Assembly (NCBI GenBank): GCA_040882345.1
Contig: JBBEBL010000263.1
Coordinates: 2,264-53,624, forward strand
From: Chloroflexota bacterium
GTDB taxonomy: Bacteria > Chloroflexota > Limnocylindria > Limnocylindrales > CSP1-4
Direction: 5' to 3'
DNA: 51,361 nucleotides
Each line of letters begins with the position of its first letter. Within the stretch, counting starts at the first letter, position 1. This document shows, in pieces, positions 4,503-21,645 of the stretch. The notes under the pieces are model-generated. The model saw nothing but the letters and a program-made list of their open reading frames with translations, made no database searches and was not told where the DNA came from. The translations under genes were made by a program, and so were the position numbers.

Positions 4503-5717
4503 GTGGCGGATGATGGCGGCGTGATCCGTCTCGCCGTCGCCCTCTTCGCGGTCCAGGCGGGATTCCACGGCTTCACCGCATCGCTGCCGGTCGCCCTGGC
4601 TCGCGCCGGCGTGCCGGACCCGGAGATCGGCCTCATCGTGGGCGTCGCCGCCCTCGTCCAGCTGCCTGCTGCGTTCGTGGCCGGGATCGTCGTGGATCGA
4701 GTCGGTGGGTTGCGCGTCTTCACGATCGGTGGCCTGGCCTACCTGGTGGGCTGTGCGATCCTGATGGCTCCGGGCGTGGAGCCCGACGGCCCGACCTGGC
4801 CGTTCCTCGTCGCGCGCATCTTCCAGGGGGTCGGCATCGCTGCGACCCTGCCGGCGGCGTTGTCGCTCGTCCCGGCCCTCACCCCACCGACGCAGCGCGG
4901 CTTCGGCCTGGCGTTCATGGGCAGCGCCCACAATCTGACCCTGGTGGCCATGCCGCCGCTGTCGCTGTTCGTCCTGTCGGCGTCGTCGCTCCACGGGGTC
5001 GCGCTGGTCATGACCGGGGTCGTCCTCGTGGGACTGACGATCGCGCGGATCGTGCCGTTCCGCTTTCGACCTCCGGACACCGCCGGGCTGGCGGATGGCC
5101 CGCGCCACGCCGCGCGGCGACGTCTCGGGTTCGCGTTCCGCCGCACGTGGGCGCCCCTGATCGCGATCATCGTCCTGTACGTCGCGCACTGGGGTGTCGT
5201 CCTGGCCTACCTTCCCCAGCGGGCCGAGGCGGCGGGGGCCAACATCGGCCTCTTCTTCGCCGCGGATGGGCTGGCCATCCTGCTCAGCCGGGTCCCGGCC
5301 GGGTGGCTCGCCGATCGGGTACGCCCGGTCCTGCCCATCAGCGCGGGTCTGGCCGCCACGTTCATCGGCGTCGGCCTGTTGACCTTCCCGCCTACGACCC
5401 CGTTGCTCATCGTGGCCGGGCTGCTGGGCGGCGCCGGTGGCGGGCTGGTCATCTCGCCGGTCCTCGTGGAGCTGTCACGCCGCAGCGCTGATGCCGATCG
5501 CGGGAGCGCGTTCTCGCTCTTCTCTGCGGCACTCGCCGCGGCCCTCGTCCTGGGCAGCATCGGGGCGGCGCCACTGATCGGCGAGGTCGGATTCGGGGTG
5601 ACGCTGGCGGTGTCCCTGTCAGGGATCATCGCGGCCGGCATCTTGACCGTGGCGGACACCGGTCTCCGGCGAGTCCCGCTCGGGGCGAGGCTGAGGTCAG
5701 GGGGCTCCGCGGCGTGA
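4503..5717 (+). CDS. MFS transporter
   Basis: Hydrophobic protein of about 12 TM segments (LAVALFAVQAGFHGFTASLPVALARAG..). The start is uncertain: GTG at 4503 or 4521. The earlier part of the track ORF overlaps the opposite-strand oxidoreductase. Confidence 0.7.
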   Translation: MADDGGVIRLAVALFAVQAGFHGFTASLPVALARAGVPDPEIGLIVGVAALVQLPAAFVAGIVVDRVGGLRVFTIGGLAYLVGCAILMAPGVEPDGPTWPFLVARIFQGVGIAATLPAALSLVPALTPPTQRGFGLAFMGSAHNLTLVAMPPLSLFVLSASSLHGVALVMTGVVLVGLTIARIVPFRFRPPDTAGLADGPRHAARRRLGFAFRRTWAPLIAIIVLYVAHWGVVLAYLPQRAEAAGANIGLFFAADGLAILLSRVPAGWLADRVRPVLPISAGLAATFIGVGLLTFPPTTPLLIVAGLLGGAGGGLVISPVLVELSRRSADADRGSAFSLFSAALAAALVLGSIGAAPLIGEVGFGVTLAVSLSGIIAAGILTVADTGLRRVPLGARLRSGGSAA

Positions 5718-5727
5718 TCGGGGGATG

Positions 5728-5803
5728 TGGCGCGCCCGGCGAGACTCGAACTCACGACCTTTAGGTCCGCAACCTAACGCTCTATCCACTGAGCTACGGG
5801 CGC
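5728..5803 (-). tRNA. tRNA-Arg with anticodon GCG (G34, not the usual bacterial A34/ACG), CCA encoded
   Basis: Reverse complement is GCGCCCG-TA-GCTC-AGTGGATA-GAGC-G-TTAGG-TTGCGGA-CCTAA-AGGTC-GTGAG-TTCGAGT-CTCGC-CGGGCGC-G-CCA. The 7-nt anticodon loop is UU-GCG-GA. The D-loop (GGATAGAG) is Arg-like and the overall layout resembles E. coli tRNA-Arg(ACG). Confidence 0.85.
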
Positions 5804-5835
5804 ACGCGATGCCGCTCTGGTCCCGGGAGAGGTCC

Positions 5836-5927
5836 TGGCGGAGAGGGAGGGATTCGAACCCTCGAAGCAGGTTACCCCACTTGGCGGTTTAGCAAACCGC
5901 TGCACTAGACCTCTATGCGACCTCTCC
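5836..5927 (-). tRNA. tRNA-Ser (anticodon GCU), CCA encoded
   Basis: Reverse complement is GGAGAGGTCGCATAGAGGTCTAGTGCAGCGGTTTGCTAAACCGC..long variable arm..GGGTTCGAATCCCTCCCTCTCCGCCA. Anticodon loop is UU-GCU-AA. Confidence 0.9.
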
Positions 5928-6202
5928 GTCGCCGACGGCGGGCGCCATCCTATCACGGCCTCCGGCGTGGCCTGGCGGCCCGATCTCGCGTCCCGGTCCG
6001 GTCGCGCGGGAGGGTCTCGATGCGCCGGAGATCACGGCGCGGATCCGCGACGTGACCCGAAGTCACACAACGGGGATAGTCCCCTCGTGGTCCATCCCCA
6101 GGTCGACATCCTGGAGCCGTTTGGGGATCGACCCCTGTTCATCTGTCGCGGATGCGTGACTACGGGTCACGACGGGCGAGCCGACGCGCGCCGGAGGCTG
6201 GA

Positions 6203-6232
6203 TTGACATGCGACCGCCACTCGGGGGACACT
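6203..6232 (+). promoter_or_regulatory. Candidate promoter for the aro leader (TTGACA, 18 nt spacer, GACACT)
   Basis: Perfect -35 TTGACA at 6203-6208. The -10 GACACT at 6227-6232 is weak and lies 10 nt upstream of the leader-peptide ATG. Confidence 0.3.
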
Positions 6233-6242
6233 CCGTGAACGC

Positions 6243-6278
6243 ATGAACCACACCTTCTACTTTTTGAGCCCGGCATGA
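6243..6278 (+). CDS. Candidate attenuation leader peptide [11 protein letters not shown] (F-Y-F)
   Basis: ATG AAC CAC ACC TTC TAC TTT TTG AGC CCG GCA TGA. Three consecutive aromatic codons sit about 50 nt upstream of an intrinsic terminator that precedes the DAHP synthase gene. It is too short for the ORF track. Confidence 0.45.
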
Positions 6279-6325
6279 TGGTTCTCGGTCGCTAGACCGG
6301 GGGCACGGGTCGTGCCGGGCGAACG

Positions 6326-6356
6326 AAGCAGAGGCCAGACCTCTGCTTTTTTGTTT
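6326..6356 (+). terminator. Intrinsic terminator / attenuator upstream of the aro operon
   Basis: Perfect stem AGCAGAGG (6327-6334) / CCTCTGCT (6340-6347) with loop CCAGA, followed by TTTTTTGTTT. It lies 35 nt upstream of the aroF start codon, so it cannot be the end of a + strand gene. Confidence 0.75.
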
Positions 6357-6390
6357 GGCCCGACCGATCGACGAGGGAGACCGCACCAAG

Positions 6391-7476
6391 ATGTTCGTCG
6401 TGATGGCCGCCGGCGCCGGCGAGGCCGAGGTCCTGGGAGTCAAGAGCCACATCCTGGGAGAGGGACTGACCCCGTACGACCATGCGTCAGGTGGGCGGGT
6501 CAAGATCGCCGTGGTCGGCGAGGTCGGCGGCCGCCGGCCGGCGCTCCTGGAACGGCTGGGGCGCCTGCCCGGGGTGGAATCGGTCACGCCGATCTCGCGG
6601 CCGTTCAAGCTGGTCTCACGCGAGTTCCATCCCGAGGACAGCGTGATCCGGGTCCTGGATGCCGCCGTCGGCGATGGCTCACTCACGATGATGGCGGGAC
6701 CGTGCTCCGTGGAGAGCCGTGAGCAGCTGTTCGAGACCGCCGACGCGGTCAAGGCCGCGGGGGCGACCATCCTGCGCGGCGGCGCGTTCAAGCCGCGGAC
6801 GAGCCCGTACGCGTTCCAGGGCCTGGGGGTCGAGGCGCTTCGCTACCTCGCCGAGGCGCGTGACCGGACAGGACTGCCGGTCATCACGGAGGTCATGGAG
6901 CCATCCCAGGTGGACATCGTGGCCGAGTACGCCGACATCCTCCAGATCGGCACCCGGAACATGCAGAACTACTCGCTCCTGCGTGACGTGGGCCGGGTCG
7001 CGCGGCCGGTCATGCTCAAGCGCGGCTACGGCGCGACCGTCGAGGAATGGCTGATGGCCGCCGAGTACATCGTCAGCTCCGGCAACCCCAACGTCATCCT
7101 GTGCGAGCGCGGGATCCGCACGTTCGAGACGTACACGCGCAACACCATGGACCTTGCCGCCGTACCACTCCTCCACCACCTGACGCACCTGCCGGTGATC
7201 GTGGACCCGAGTCACGCCACGGGCAAGCGCTGGCTGGTCAAACCGCTGGCCATCGGCGGCGTGGCCGTCGGGGCGGACGGCGTCATGGTGGAGGTGCACC
7301 CCACCCCGGATCAGGCCCTGTCCGACGCGGAGCAGCAACTGAACCTTGACCAGTTCCGGGACCTGATGGAGACGCTCGTCCCCGTCCACGCCCACGTGCG
7401 CGGGCTGCGGGGGGACCCGGTCATGTCCGCCGAGGCGATGGGCATCGGCGGGACGGGAGGCCTGGCGCGACATTGA
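6391..7476 (+). CDS. aroF: 3-deoxy-7-phosphoheptulonate (DAHP) synthase, type I-beta with N-terminal ferredoxin-like/ACT regulatory domain
   Basis: [85 protein letters not shown]. It is collinear with the Thermotoga maritima-type DAHPS. SD GAGGGAGA at 6373-6380. Confidence 0.92.
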
Positions 7477-9760: not shown

Positions 9761-11085
9761 CCGCGTTCCGTTTCCTCACGGCCGGGGAGTCGCACGGACC
9801 CGCCCTGGGCGCGACCGTGGAAGGCGTCCCGGCCGGCCTCCCCCTGGACGCCGACACCATCGCCGTGGATCTCGCCCGGCGACAGAAGGGCTACGGGCGC
9901 GGCGCCCGCCAGGCCATAGAACAGGACCGCGCGGAGATCCTGGGCGGTGTCCGGCACGGGCGGACGCTTGGCTCACCGATCCTCCTCCTGGTCCGCAACC
10001 GCGACTGGGAGAACTGGACCCAGGTCATGCAGGTCGAGCCCCTGGACGACGAGACCGCAGCTGGGCTGTTCGCCGCAGCCGAGGGCGGCAATAAGCGGGC
10101 GACGCCGGTCACACGGGTGCGCCCCGGGCACGCCGACCTCGCGGGTGCCCTCAAGTACGGATTCAACGACGTTCGCGACGTACTGGAGCGCGCCTCCGCG
10201 CGTGAGACCGCGGCGCGGGTCGCGGCCGGCGCGGTCGCTCGGGCGTACCTGCGCGAGCTCGGGATCGAGGTCTGGTCATTCACCGCGGAGGTCGGGGGCG
10301 TGGCGCTGGACCCGGAGCGCTCCACCCGCTCACGCGAGGAGGCCGACGCGTCCCCCCTGCGCTGTCCCGACGCCGAGGCGGAGGCCGCGATGATCGCCCG
10401 GATCGATGAGGCGCGCAGCCGCGGCGACACCGTGGGCGGCGTGTTCGAGGTCGTCGCCCACGGGCTGCCGGTCGGGCTCGGCTCGTACGTCCACTGGGAC
10501 CGGCGCCTTGATGCCGCCCTGGCCGCCGCGGTCATGAGCATCAACATCGTCAAGGGCGTGGAGTTCGGGCTCGGGTTCCAGCAGACGCGGCGGTTCGGGT
10601 CCGGTGTCCATGACGTGATCGAGGGCCGCACGGACGATGGCCGCTGGGTCCACCGCTCCAACAACGCCGGCGGCCTCACCGGTGGCGTCACGAACGGCGA
10701 GCCGCTCGTCGTCCGCGGTGCGGTCAAGCCCATCTCCACGCTCGCCCGCCCGCTCCCGTCCGCCGACCTCATCAGCGGCGAGGCGGTGGACAAGGCGCAC
10801 TACGAGCGCAGCGACATCAGCGTGGTCCCGGCGGCCGGCGTGGTCGGCGAGGCGATGGTCATGCTCACCCTCGCGGCATCCATCGCGGAGAAGTTCGGCG
10901 GCGACACGATGGACGACGTCCGCGCCGGCATGGCTGCCTACCAGGCGCGGATCGCCACCCCGCCGGCGGCGCCCGTGGCCGGCGGCGTGCGCGCCGCCAA
11001 TCCCCGATCGTCGGCTCCGCCCGTCCCAGCGCCAGCCCACGGCCTGTCCGGCACGGACGAGGCCGGGTCCGGCGGCGACGACTAG
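9757..11085 (+). CDS. aroC: Chorismate synthase with a Pro/Ala-rich C-terminal tail
   Basis: FRFLTAGESHGPALGATVEGVPAG..RPGHADLAG..SARETAARVAAGA..GDTVGGVFE. GTGA overlap with aroE. Confidence 0.92.
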   Translation: MTAFRFLTAGESHGPALGATVEGVPAGLPLDADTIAVDLARRQKGYGRGARQAIEQDRAEILGGVRHGRTLGSPILLLVRNRDWENWTQVMQVEPLDDETAAGLFAAAEGGNKRATPVTRVRPGHADLAGALKYGFNDVRDVLERASARETAARVAAGAVARAYLRELGIEVWSFTAEVGGVALDPERSTRSREEADASPLRCPDAEAEAAMIARIDEARSRGDTVGGVFEVVAHGLPVGLGSYVHWDRRLDAALAAAVMSINIVKGVEFGLGFQQTRRFGSGVHDVIEGRTDDGRWVHRSNNAGGLTGGVTNGEPLVVRGAVKPISTLARPLPSADLISGEAVDKAHYERSDISVVPAAGVVGEAMVMLTLAASIAEKFGGDTMDDVRAGMAAYQARIATPPAAPVAGGVRAANPRSSAPPVPAPAHGLSGTDEAGSGGDD

Positions 11086-11095
11086 GGGACCTGAG

Positions 11096-12754
11096 ATGGA
11101 CCTCGTCCTCGTCGGCCTGCCTGGCAGTGGCAAGAGCGTGGTCGGCAGGCGCGTCGCGCAACGTCACCGGGCGACGTTCATCGACCTCGACGAGGAGATC
11201 GAGCGGACCGACGGGCGCGCGATCCCGGACATCTTCGCCGACGACGGTGAGGCCGCATTCCGGACACTGGAGCGACAGATCGTCGCGGACCTGGGGTCTG
11301 CCGACGACGCCCCCGAGCTTCGCCGCGTCATCGCGACGGGGGGCGGCGCCGTCGTGGACCCGCGGAATCGCTGGCGCCTCTACCGCGGCCGCCAGACGGC
11401 GTGGCTGGACGGCCGCCCGGAGGTCCTCGCCCAGCGCCTGCGACGTTCGCCCCACGTGCGCCCGCTCGTGACCAGCCGCGATCCGATCGGGACCATCCGC
11501 GACCTCGCCGTCCGTCGCGATCGCTTCTACGCCGCCGCGGACCTGCGGGTGGCCGGCGTTCGTGACGTCGGCCAGGTCGTGGCGACGCTCGAGACGAGCC
11601 TGGTCGATCGCGAGGCGGATCCGACCGTGGCCGGGACCGTGCTCCTGCGGGCAAAGACCTCGCTCGGGCGCATCGTCATCGTGGATCACGGTGCCGCCCC
11701 GGAGGTGGACCGGGCTCTTCGACAGCTGGAGGCGCGCCGGGCCATCATCGTCTCTGAGCCGGGGGCCCATGCGGCCGCGGGCGCGCGGATCTCCGAGGCG
11801 CTGGTCGCGCTCGGGTGGGCCCTGGAGACCGTGCTGCTGCCGGAGGGCGAGTCGGCCAAGCGCATGGCCGTCATCGAGGCGGCCGCGAGCGACCTGGCGC
11901 GGCTCCGCGTGGAACGGGACGAGCCGATCGTGGCCATCGGCGGTGGCGCCCTTGGCGACGCCGCCGGCTTCCTGGCCGCCACGTACCTGCGCGGGATCCC
12001 GCTCATCCACATCCCCACGACGCTCGTCGCCCAGATCGACTCGTCCATCGGCGGGAAGACGGCCGTGGACCTGCCGGAGGGCAAGAACCTGATCGGAGCG
12101 TTCCACCAGCCCGCGGCCGTCGTCATGGACACGGCCGTCACCCGGTCGTTGCCAGAGCGCCAGCGGCGGGCGGCCCTGGGCGAAGCGGTCAAGATGGCCG
12201 CGCTCGGGGACGAGCGCCTGTTCGACCTGCTGGAGTCCCATGGCCCGGCCATCGCGCGCGGCGACGACGCGGCGTACGCGACCGGGGTCGTCGCCGAGCT
12301 GGTGGAGCGGAGTGCCTGGGCAAAGGTGGAGATCGTCATGGCGGATGAGCACGAACGATCGGGCGACGGTAGCGGGCGCATCAGCCTCAACCTGGGTCAC
12401 TCGCTGGGCCACGCGGTGGAGGCTGCGGCCGGCTACGGGGACCTGCTGCACGGTGAGGCCGTCGCCTATGGGCTCCGGGCCGCCGGACGGATCGGCGTGG
12501 CGCTGGGGGTGTCCCCGGCGGAGCGTACGGAGCGAATCGGCCGGTTGCTGGACGAGCTGGACCTGGCCCGGACTCCCCTCCCCTACGGCCTGGACACGGT
12601 GCTGGACCACCTGGCCGCGGACAAGAAGCACAGCGGCGGTCGACTGCGCTGGGTCCTGCCCACGGCCACGGGCGTCGAGGTCCGGGCCGACGTCCCAGAC
12701 GAGATCGTGCGCGAGGCCGCCGGCTCGCTGCTCGCCACGGGAGCGACTCGATGA
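11096..12754 (+). CDS. aroKB: Bifunctional shikimate kinase / 3-dehydroquinate synthase (AroK-AroB fusion)
   Basis: The N-terminus MDLVLVGLPGSGKSVVGRRVA..FIDLD..FRTLE is AroK (P-loop). From about residue 190, EGESAKRM..IGGGALGDAAGFLAATYLRGIPLIHIPTTLVAQIDSSIGGKTAV..NLGHSLGHAVE is AroB. It is a single frame. The track ORF's upstream part overlaps aroC in another frame. Confidence 0.9.
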   Translation: MDLVLVGLPGSGKSVVGRRVAQRHRATFIDLDEEIERTDGRAIPDIFADDGEAAFRTLERQIVADLGSADDAPELRRVIATGGGAVVDPRNRWRLYRGRQTAWLDGRPEVLAQRLRRSPHVRPLVTSRDPIGTIRDLAVRRDRFYAAADLRVAGVRDVGQVVATLETSLVDREADPTVAGTVLLRAKTSLGRIVIVDHGAAPEVDRALRQLEARRAIIVSEPGAHAAAGARISEALVALGWALETVLLPEGESAKRMAVIEAAASDLARLRVERDEPIVAIGGGALGDAAGFLAATYLRGIPLIHIPTTLVAQIDSSIGGKTAVDLPEGKNLIGAFHQPAAVVMDTAVTRSLPERQRRAALGEAVKMAALGDERLFDLLESHGPAIARGDDAAYATGVVAELVERSAWAKVEIVMADEHERSGDGSGRISLNLGHSLGHAVEAAAGYGDLLHGEAVAYGLRAAGRIGVALGVSPAERTERIGRLLDELDLARTPLPYGLDTVLDHLAADKKHSGGRLRWVLPTATGVEVRADVPDEIVREAAGSLLATGATR

Positions 12755-13191
12755 CGCACGTCCTCGTGCTGCAGGGGCCGAACCTCAACCTGCTGGGCAC
12801 CCGCGAGCCGGAGATCTACGGATACGAGTCACTGCAGGAGATCCATGCCGGGATCCAGGCACGGGCCGCCGAGCTGGGGCTGACCGTGGCCTTCTTCCAG
12901 TCGAACCACGAGGGCGCGCTCATCGACCGACTGCACGCGCGCGACTTTGATGTCGCCATCGTCAACGCCGGCGGCCTCACCCACACGAGCGTCTCACTGC
13001 GGGATGCCCTGTCCGCGGTGCAGAGACCGTTCGTGGAGGTCCACCTGTCCGACCCATCCCGGCGCGAGCCGTTCCGACAGGTCAACTTCCTCCACGACAT
13101 CGCCGTCGAGTCGATCGTCGGACAGGGGGCGCGGGGCTACCACCTGGCGCTCGAGGCCATCGCCCGTCGCTACGGTGGCGCCCGTGGCTGA
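12751..13191 (+). CDS. aroQ: Type II 3-dehydroquinate dehydratase
   Basis: VLVLQGPNLNLLGTREPEIYG..FQSNHEGALID..NAGGLTHTSVSLRDA..EVHLSDP. ATGA overlap with aroKB. Confidence 0.93.
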   Translation: MTHVLVLQGPNLNLLGTREPEIYGYESLQEIHAGIQARAAELGLTVAFFQSNHEGALIDRLHARDFDVAIVNAGGLTHTSVSLRDALSAVQRPFVEVHLSDPSRREPFRQVNFLHDIAVESIVGQGARGYHLALEAIARRYGGARG

Positions 13192-21336: not shown

Positions 21337-21645
21337 AATCAAGAAACGACCGTTTCGTCCCGGGACGAAAGGTCGTGCCTTCCGCGGTGCCACCCTCATT
21401 CGGCGTGTGCCGCACTCATCGTGACCGACGGCTCGTGGTGGTTGCCCACCGCGGCGATCGGCGCTGCCCGGTATCGCTGGCGCTCTGCGCCGGAGCCTAC
21501 TGGTCGCGCGACCCGCAAGGGCCGCTGCGTCGTTCGGTCCGGAGGCTCCCGGGTCCATCCCCTGCCGCTGTCGCTCCGGTTTCCACCAACCACCGGATCT
21601 CTGTGCCGACGCACGTCAGGTACTCGTCCCGTTCACAGCCCGTCT
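21337..21645 (-). promoter_or_regulatory. T-box riboswitch leader (tRNA-Trp-responsive) with intrinsic terminator
   Basis: Reverse strand features:
- T-box sequence AAUGAGGGUGGCACCGCG (complement of 21383-21400).
- Terminator ACGACCUUUCGUC / GACGAAACGGUCGU (complement of 21346-21376) followed by UUCUUGAUU.
- Stem I elements: GAGUA S-turn, AGAGA bulge, UCCGG/CCGGA helix capped by UGGUUGGUGGAAA.
- Specifier loop GGA-UGG-A, with UGG at complement 21555-21557. Confidence 0.82.

Follow-up and report, generated by a model that had tools for sequence, protein, structure and literature searches.

Leader-peptide attenuation is a textbook mechanism, although to our knowledge it has rarely been documented outside the Proteobacteria and a few Actinobacteria. 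All characterised amino-acid leaders of the trp, phe and his type are known to work by a three-helix antiterminator scheme. In the enterobacterial pheL and trpL leaders the transcript comprises four segments, the control codons lie inside segment 1, and segments 2 and 3 form a mutually exclusive antiterminator. A different solution is found in E. coli pyrBI and pyrE, where the ribosome occludes the terminator and no antiterminator is involved: the reading frame reaches the terminator or passes through it, and the moving ribosome is what blocks this terminator. In Corynebacterium glutamicum, an F-Y-F leader termed aroR lies upstream of aroF, whose transcription goes up under Phe limitation (Neshat et al. 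2014, as summarised in PMC11802643 and PMC7356990); the initial annotation had named this precedent, and it is a real one as PMC11802643 summarises it. Our literature search for leader-peptide attenuation in Chloroflexota found no report.

Here we analyse a 51,361-nt stretch of a Chloroflexota genome of the class Limnocylindria (assembly GCA_040882345.1, contig JBBEBL010000263.1; G+C 71.5%), referred to below as the window, which carries a short leader ORF, a first hairpin (P1) and an intrinsic terminator (T) ahead of a shikimate operon. Going by the published description of aroR, the two loci share a short Phe-Tyr-Phe leader directly upstream of the DAHP synthase gene. As the same summaries have it, ribosome stalling under a shortage of Phe increases aroR-aroF transcription, which we count as a likeness to the attenuator predicted in the window. 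Both loci belong to high-GC lineages of Gram-positive type with leaderless small ORFs, although aroR comes from the Actinomycetota and the present leader from the Chloroflexota. Unlike aroR, the leader of the window would gate all seven shikimate genes, its relatives add Trp codons, no antiterminator is detectable in it, and it contains a second, overlapping mini-ORF. With pheL-pheA and trpL-trpE it shares a leader ORF with a run of end-product codons, a hairpin over the end of this ORF and a terminator before the first gene. It differs from them in having two independent hairpins with the control codons upstream of P1, a 5' UTR near zero, no Shine-Dalgarno sequence and no Rfam match. This geometry is the reverse of that of the E. 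coli trp leader, whose control codons sit in the first hairpin. The resemblance to pyrBI and pyrE is that no fold competes with the terminator and that the outcome would be set by how close ribosome and polymerase are at the terminator. However, the mini-ORFs of the window end 30-47 nt upstream of T (ORF1 at 6278, ORF2 at 6295, T from 6325), and the ribosome that we propose would be a stalled one, brought near T only through folded P1.

The leader and its operon

The elements discussed below are the following, in window coordinates.

6203-6208, + strand: -35 hexamer TTGACA of the leader/operon promoter, read from the window sequence
6227-6232, + strand: -10-like hexamer GACACT, with an 18-nt spacer to TTGACA, ending 10 nt before ATG 6243
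6243-6278, + strand: leader ORF1 (ATG 6243, TGA 6276-6278), 11-residue peptide
6255-6263, + strand: control codons TTC TAC TTT (Phe-Tyr-Phe), of which TTT is a rare codon
6268-6320, + strand: hairpin P1, 53 nt, containing the ORF1 stop codon (minimum free energy, MFE, fold)
6268-6279 / 6309-6320, + strand: P1 lower stem (MFE fold)
~6281-6290 / 6295-6304, + strand: P1 upper stem, apical loop 6291-6294 (MFE fold)
6275-6295, + strand: ORF2 (MMVLGR*), whose ATG overlaps the ORF1 stop (ATGA) and whose TAG lies in the P1 apical loop
6302-6316, + strand: local alternative hairpin in the P1 right arm, GGCAC 6302-6306 / GTGCC 6312-6316, seen with the left arm masked
6325-6356, + strand: intrinsic terminator T, stem 6325-6334 / 6340-6349 (10 pairs), loop CCAGA, U6GU3 tract to 6356
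6373-6379, + strand: Shine-Dalgarno-like GAGGGAG of aroF, 11 nt before ATG 6391
6391-7476, + strand: aroF, which opens the operon and encodes a type I-beta DAHP synthase with an N-terminal ferredoxin-like regulatory domain
11085-12754: AroK-AroB fusion
12751-13191: aroQ, type II dehydroquinase, whose start overlaps the stop of the AroK-AroB fusion

Much of this layout had been recognised in the initial annotation. Its F-Y-F mini-ORF at 6243-6278 reads from the sequence as described, and its 8-bp hairpin followed by a T6GT3 tract is likewise found, the perfect core (AGCAGAGG 6327-6334 / CCTCTGCT 6340-6347) being part of a stem that extends to 10 pairs (6325-6349). The DAHP synthase start, implied there to lie at 6392, is corrected here to the ATG at 6391. 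The mini-ORF had also been called leaderless. A near-leaderless reading of the promoter holds and is conserved in relatives, but the predicted 5' UTR is about 3-5 nt and not zero, with transcription expected to start at ~6238-6240. Finally, two "competing pairings" had been listed between the mini-ORF and the terminator. Both can form, but neither rivals T: the pairing of GCCCGGCA 6268-6275 with TGCCGGGC 6313-6320 is the P1 lower stem itself, and the other is the alternative hairpin within the P1 right arm, which does not involve the terminator.

The promoter and start position in the window are predicted from conservation. When the upstream regions of relatives are compared, TTGAC is found in every one of them, 39-43 nt 5' of the leader start codon, with CACACT or TAnnGT at the same -10 spacing. 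A simple sigma-70 scan did not call the GACACT -10 element, which is weak by the E. coli consensus. ORF1 is preceded by no Shine-Dalgarno sequence. The whole leader is kept in a family of small genomes (~1.1 Mb; f2, loci L113-L116), with 6 nt between the -10 hexamer TAGAGT and the ATG, an arrangement that predicts a truly leaderless f2 leader. A separate promoter between T and aroF was considered and rejected: this gap spans 31-55 nt in the loci of relatives and conserved hexamers are absent from it.

The first gene of the operon matches Pfam PF00793 (6e-81) and, just under the cut-off of 27, PF18152 (26.6 bits). Its product aligns over the full length, N-terminal regulatory domain included, with the Thermotoga maritima DAHP synthase 1RZM/3PG9 (4e-103). 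The gene order is aroF-aroA-aroE-aroC-aroKB-aroQ-chorismate mutase without gaps, followed by a GluQ-like gene. All seven shikimate steps are encoded in this one operon, and the leader would consequently gate the whole common aromatic pathway. T is the sole terminator-like site in 5600-7000, against 0.4 from shuffles.

Two tRNA genes are located upstream of the leader on the opposite strand. On the - strand, at 21358-21645, a T-box-like leader precedes a convergent trp operon. Its score of 58 bits (E = 4.6e-12) is under the Rfam gathering score of 93, and a scan at the gathering threshold accordingly leaves it out. The RNA sensor of the Trp branch seems to be of another type than that of the common pathway.

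Conservation and codon content across Limnocylindria

The initial annotation had proposed looking for the mini-ORF and terminator upstream of aroF in related genomes, and this comparison bears it out: of 41 loci whose DAHP synthase is 67-89% identical to that of the window, 37 have the leader unit upstream. Its elements follow each other in the order TTGAC, ORF1, an invariant CCCGGCATGA, the hairpin, GTGCCGGG, then GCAGAGG-loop-CCTCTGCTTTTTTGTTT. We searched the window's genome and 301 sampled Limnocylindria genomes with a covariance model based on 38 leaders. The model finds one copy in the window's genome; a second copy ahead of other aromatic genes of that genome was looked for with the same model and none was found. 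One copy each is present in 105 of the 301 sampled genomes (81 of the 154 high-quality ones), always ahead of a seven-step shikimate operon whose first gene encodes a Thermotoga-type DAHP synthase. The matches include most of the listed genomes of the window's family (f1) and 11 of the 12 genomes of f2; those in a sister family (f4) are weaker. A cmscan of 5500-6800 with E up to 10 returned no known leader family, whether Phe_leader, Trp_leader, His_leader or others of Rfam.

The leader is missing from some relatives, namely from the genera g16 and g23 and from loci L032 and L035; at these two loci the DAHP synthase gene directly follows another gene, with neither promoter nor terminator in between.

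The leader peptide varies in a manner that is informative about how it is read. In 38 relatives ORF1 has 10-12 codons, ends in CCG GCA TGA and always contains a run of two to four F/Y/W residues, the aromatic runs being FYF, FFYF, YFYF, WFYF, FYFY, FWY, YWF, FYWY and IYLF. Indels in ORF1 are multiples of 3 nt, i.e. whole codons. The f4 leaders have only 8-9 codons with W-F-Y or F-W-Y-Y, and once they are included all three products of the pathway are represented in the putative control codons; the leaders of relatives are thereby predicted to sense tRNA-Trp as well. These W-F-Y leaders resemble that of the window in class, gene context, P1 core helix and absence of an antiterminator. They differ from it in that their UAG is at the P1 foot, whereas the window's family has an F-Y-F leader of 11-12 codons with its stop inside P1, plus ORF2.

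Codon choice in the leaders opposes the codon bias of the genome. TTT accounts for 36 of 74 leader Phe codons (49%, or about one per leader) as compared with 2.6% of 7022 Phe codons genome-wide, where shares were computed over 637 long ORFs. TAT (12 of 52 leader Tyr codons vs 15% genome-wide) and CGA (17 of 45 leader Arg codons vs 8.8%) are enriched as well. Taken together, the swaps among F, Y and W, the 3-nt indels and the enrichment in rare codons argue that ORF1 is translated as codons. The central claim of the initial annotation, that a ribosome-read F-Y-F leader and an intrinsic terminator gate the shikimate operon, is strengthened by this conservation, by the aromatic swaps and rare codons, and by the content of the operon.

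It is worth mentioning that in most f1 leaders the rare Arg codon CGA comes right after TTT; the window has TTG at this place (6264-6266). Genome G000 encodes two copies of tRNA-Arg(GCG) and one of tRNA-Arg(UCG). The TTT-CGA pair may slow the ribosome at the P1 foot. A +1 frameshift at UUU-CGA, which would take ribosomes through T, was considered and discarded, as a +1-frame stop precedes T in 15 of 71 leaders, the window included.

Folding of the leader and alternative explanations

Folding 6230-6360 with RNAfold, which had been suggested as a way of finding alternative structures, yields two hairpins only, P1 and T (-59.2 kcal/mol, z = -4.5). P1 is predicted in 71 of 71 distinct leaders with a mean of -35.8 kcal/mol; its upper stem covaries and its lower stem is invariant, and the core helix GGCAYGA / UCGUGCC is common to f1/f2 and f4. 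A G-quadruplex in the P1 right arm was an idea arrived at by eye and was dropped because its regulatory logic would be wrong. All relatives conserve a predicted intrinsic terminator in the interval from the leader ORF to the first structural gene. In f1, GCAGAGG / CCTCTGC and the T-tract are invariant, and T has a predicted mean of -14.1 kcal/mol. The U6-G-U3 tail with its G at a fixed place (6348-6356 in the window) is kept even across families whose T stems differ, as seen at the f4 loci.

The initial annotation had assigned the leader to the classical pheA/trp/his architecture. This assignment is not sustained: the control codons are upstream of the first hairpin and not inside it, and masked folds, a complementarity scan and duplex energies compared with shuffles find no antiterminator in either leader family of the class. 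One may still ask whether a classical third helix was overlooked, in which a stalled ribosome would free a part of P1 to pair with the T 5' arm. The precedent of every characterised trp/phe/his-type leader speaks for such a scheme, as do the F-Y-F codons of the window, which can pair with 6325-6334 at 9 of 10 positions, and the MFE fold of one relative (L009), in which an extended helix of this kind forms when no ribosome is present. However, a ribosome stalled on F-Y-F would itself cover these codons, and over 71 leaders the duplex between leader codons and the T 5' arm is no better than shuffled (mean -6.6 vs -6.8 kcal/mol; median p 0.54). Either P1 arm against either T arm scores at or below shuffled sequences in both f1/f2 and f4, whereas the duplex of the two T arms (-13 to -16 kcal/mol) scores far above them. 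Moreover, the only conserved complementary columns of a 72-sequence structural alignment are the P1 lower stem, T and register shifts in CCGG-rich P1 segments, without any such helix, and with a ribosome masked at each codon in turn T forms in every fold of seven diverse leaders. We consequently judge an overlooked antiterminator to be unlikely.

Three further explanations were weighed. In the first, the peptide would be a nascent-chain sensor of the TnaC type: in the presence of free aromatic amino acid, ribosomes that have added Pro-Ala would arrest at the UGA and, being arrested there, set the RNA fold; in f1 the C-terminal Pro-Ala-UGA is indeed invariant, and with the ribosome at the stop the aromatic cluster would lie 4-6 residues from the peptidyl-transferase centre. 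However, the Pro-Ala codons double as the left strand of the invariant P1 stem, and RNA pairing accounts for their invariance, and f4 peptides end in Y-A, Y-G, Y-V or Y-T before UAG, leaving the families with dissimilar C-termini. Since, in addition, the aromatic residues change freely in order and identity and selection for rare TTT and TAT fits a sensing of tRNA supply rather than of peptide sequence, we regard an arrest peptide as very improbable. Control of T by a trans factor, whether an RNA-binding protein or, in the manner of a T-box, uncharged tRNA, would make the mini-ORFs secondary. It would agree with the conservation of the P1 lower stem (GGCAYGA / UCGUGCC) and the T stem in sequence and not just in pairing, even between families, and with the T-box-like leader of the trp operon in the same window; yet the leader matches no Rfam family and lacks T-box features, and the aromatic codons, the rare-codon bias and the 3-nt indels would all be left unexplained, which makes this possibility a distinctly weak one in our estimation. 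That there is no switch at all, transcription of the operon being constantly lowered by a leaky terminator or by a small-RNA gene, would be in line with the prediction that T forms under all modelled conditions. Here the difficulty is that the only conserved promoter lies upstream of the leader, the 31-55 nt between T and aroF being too small for another, and that an aromatic-codon ORF kept in precise register with P1 across three families would have no explanation; we attach hardly any weight to it.

Ribosome position and a proposed mechanism

The reading that we favour is that of a ribosome-mediated attenuator which adjusts expression of the whole shikimate operon to the available charged tRNA-Phe and tRNA-Tyr and works with two hairpins and no antiterminator; on balance, and with modest confidence, we hold it to be correct. 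Geometry was measured on 82 leaders of the three families f1, f2 and f4. Counted from the first base of the last aromatic codon, P1 pairing starts after 3-8 nt in these leaders, and the linker between P1 and T is 0-5 nt in 82 of 82. The ORF1 stop is 6-12 nt inside P1 in f1/f2 and at the P1 foot in f4; in the window the TGA is 8 nt inside the P1 left arm. A ribosome protects about 10 nt beyond its A site (PMC4824070). With the spacing of 3-8 nt, such a footprint implies that a ribosome stalled on the aromatic codons would abut P1 and open at most a few basal pairs. Across the 82 leaders, the control codons are thus not placed where a stalled ribosome would disrupt the first hairpin.

We propose that a ribosome waiting at TTC, TAC or TTT would reach the P1 foot only and leave P1 folded. 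A ribosome that finishes the peptide would instead enter P1 to reach the TGA and unzip the lower stem; in the window's family, it could next re-initiate at the overlapping ATG and translate six codons up to the stop in the P1 loop, holding the whole hairpin open. With plenty of Phe and Tyr, P1 would be open, T would fold freely and transcription would end near 6356. Under starvation, P1 would be folded with the stalled ribosome at its foot, T would be defeated and the operon transcribed. Because no other conserved promoter serves the operon, T must be passable. From the biosynthetic logic, the aroR precedent, in which stalling leads to read-through, and the geometry, we infer that folded P1 gives read-through and open P1 termination.

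Since T forms at equilibrium in every masked fold, the read-through state has to be explained by steric or kinetic arguments, and three candidates may be envisaged. In candidate (a), P1 would bridge the stalled ribosome to within a few nt of the T 5' arm, and RNA polymerase and ribosome would clash before the basal pairs of T close. A ribosome 5 nt from the E. coli terminator tR2 cuts termination from ~90% to below 10%, but by the criterion quoted in the same work a terminator arm outside the ribosome could still fold (PMC4824070), which makes candidate (a) borderline. In candidate (b), the bulky P1 helix, 0-5 nt from T, would itself hinder completion of the hairpin in the RNA exit channel. 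Against this, folded aptamer helices of many OFF riboswitches sit close to terminators that work. In candidate (c), P1 would act on the polymerase as a cis antiterminator RNA. A role for ORF2 would be clear under (b) and (c), where it would prevent P1 from closing during transcription of T; under (a), it would serve only as a safety stop.

The ORF2 ATG is made of the A of the last ORF1 sense codon and the TG of the stop (GCATGA), and in the window the frame reads ATG ATG GTT CTC GGT CGC TAG. A stop in the ORF2 frame is present at the same P1 loop position in 64 of 71 distinct f1/f2 leaders; two others have an ORF2 of 5 or 7 codons that still ends in the P1 loop, and two have an earlier stop, one of them having lost the loop stop. 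TAG, TGA and TAA are all used, and the loops vary in sequence and size. The third frame is open past the terminator in 56 of 71 leaders, usually for more than 100 nt, and in leader L026, where ACG replaces the ORF2 ATG, the ORF2 frame has no stop for more than 280 nt. In our view the loop stop has been selected because it halts ribosomes re-initiating at the ATGA overlap, and this would in turn mean that ribosomes do terminate at the ORF1 stop. ORF2 could also be merely a 'safety stop' against accidental re-initiation. Two f2 leaders have CTG for the ORF2 ATG, yet keep the loop stop, and in 7 of 12 f4 leaders the loop contains a UAG with no overlapping start, so that the stop-in-loop signal is not fully specific. 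The more elaborate form of our proposal, in which P1 is the read-through element (by tethering the stalled ribosome or by blocking T) and ORF2 parks the fed ribosome on the P1 apex so that P1 is open for as long as termination requires, is accordingly put forward as a tentative and rather doubtful possibility.

If only the ordinary reading proves true, the leader would be a well-supported addition to the aroR-type attenuators. A single leader would here control the entire common aromatic pathway in an abundant, uncultured class of soil and freshwater bacteria. Two hairpins without a competing fold, control codons outside the first hairpin and an overlapping mini-ORF cannot be accounted for by the classical model, and they would offer a compact case in which ribosome position controls an intrinsic terminator through spacing and not through alternative pairing.

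Lastly, in the f4 leaders L123 and L125 the sequence TAT GGC provides an ATG in the +1 frame, and a 9-codon frame runs from it to the P1-loop UAG. This frame may correspond to ORF2; the other f4 leaders read ACG where these two have the +1-frame ATG.
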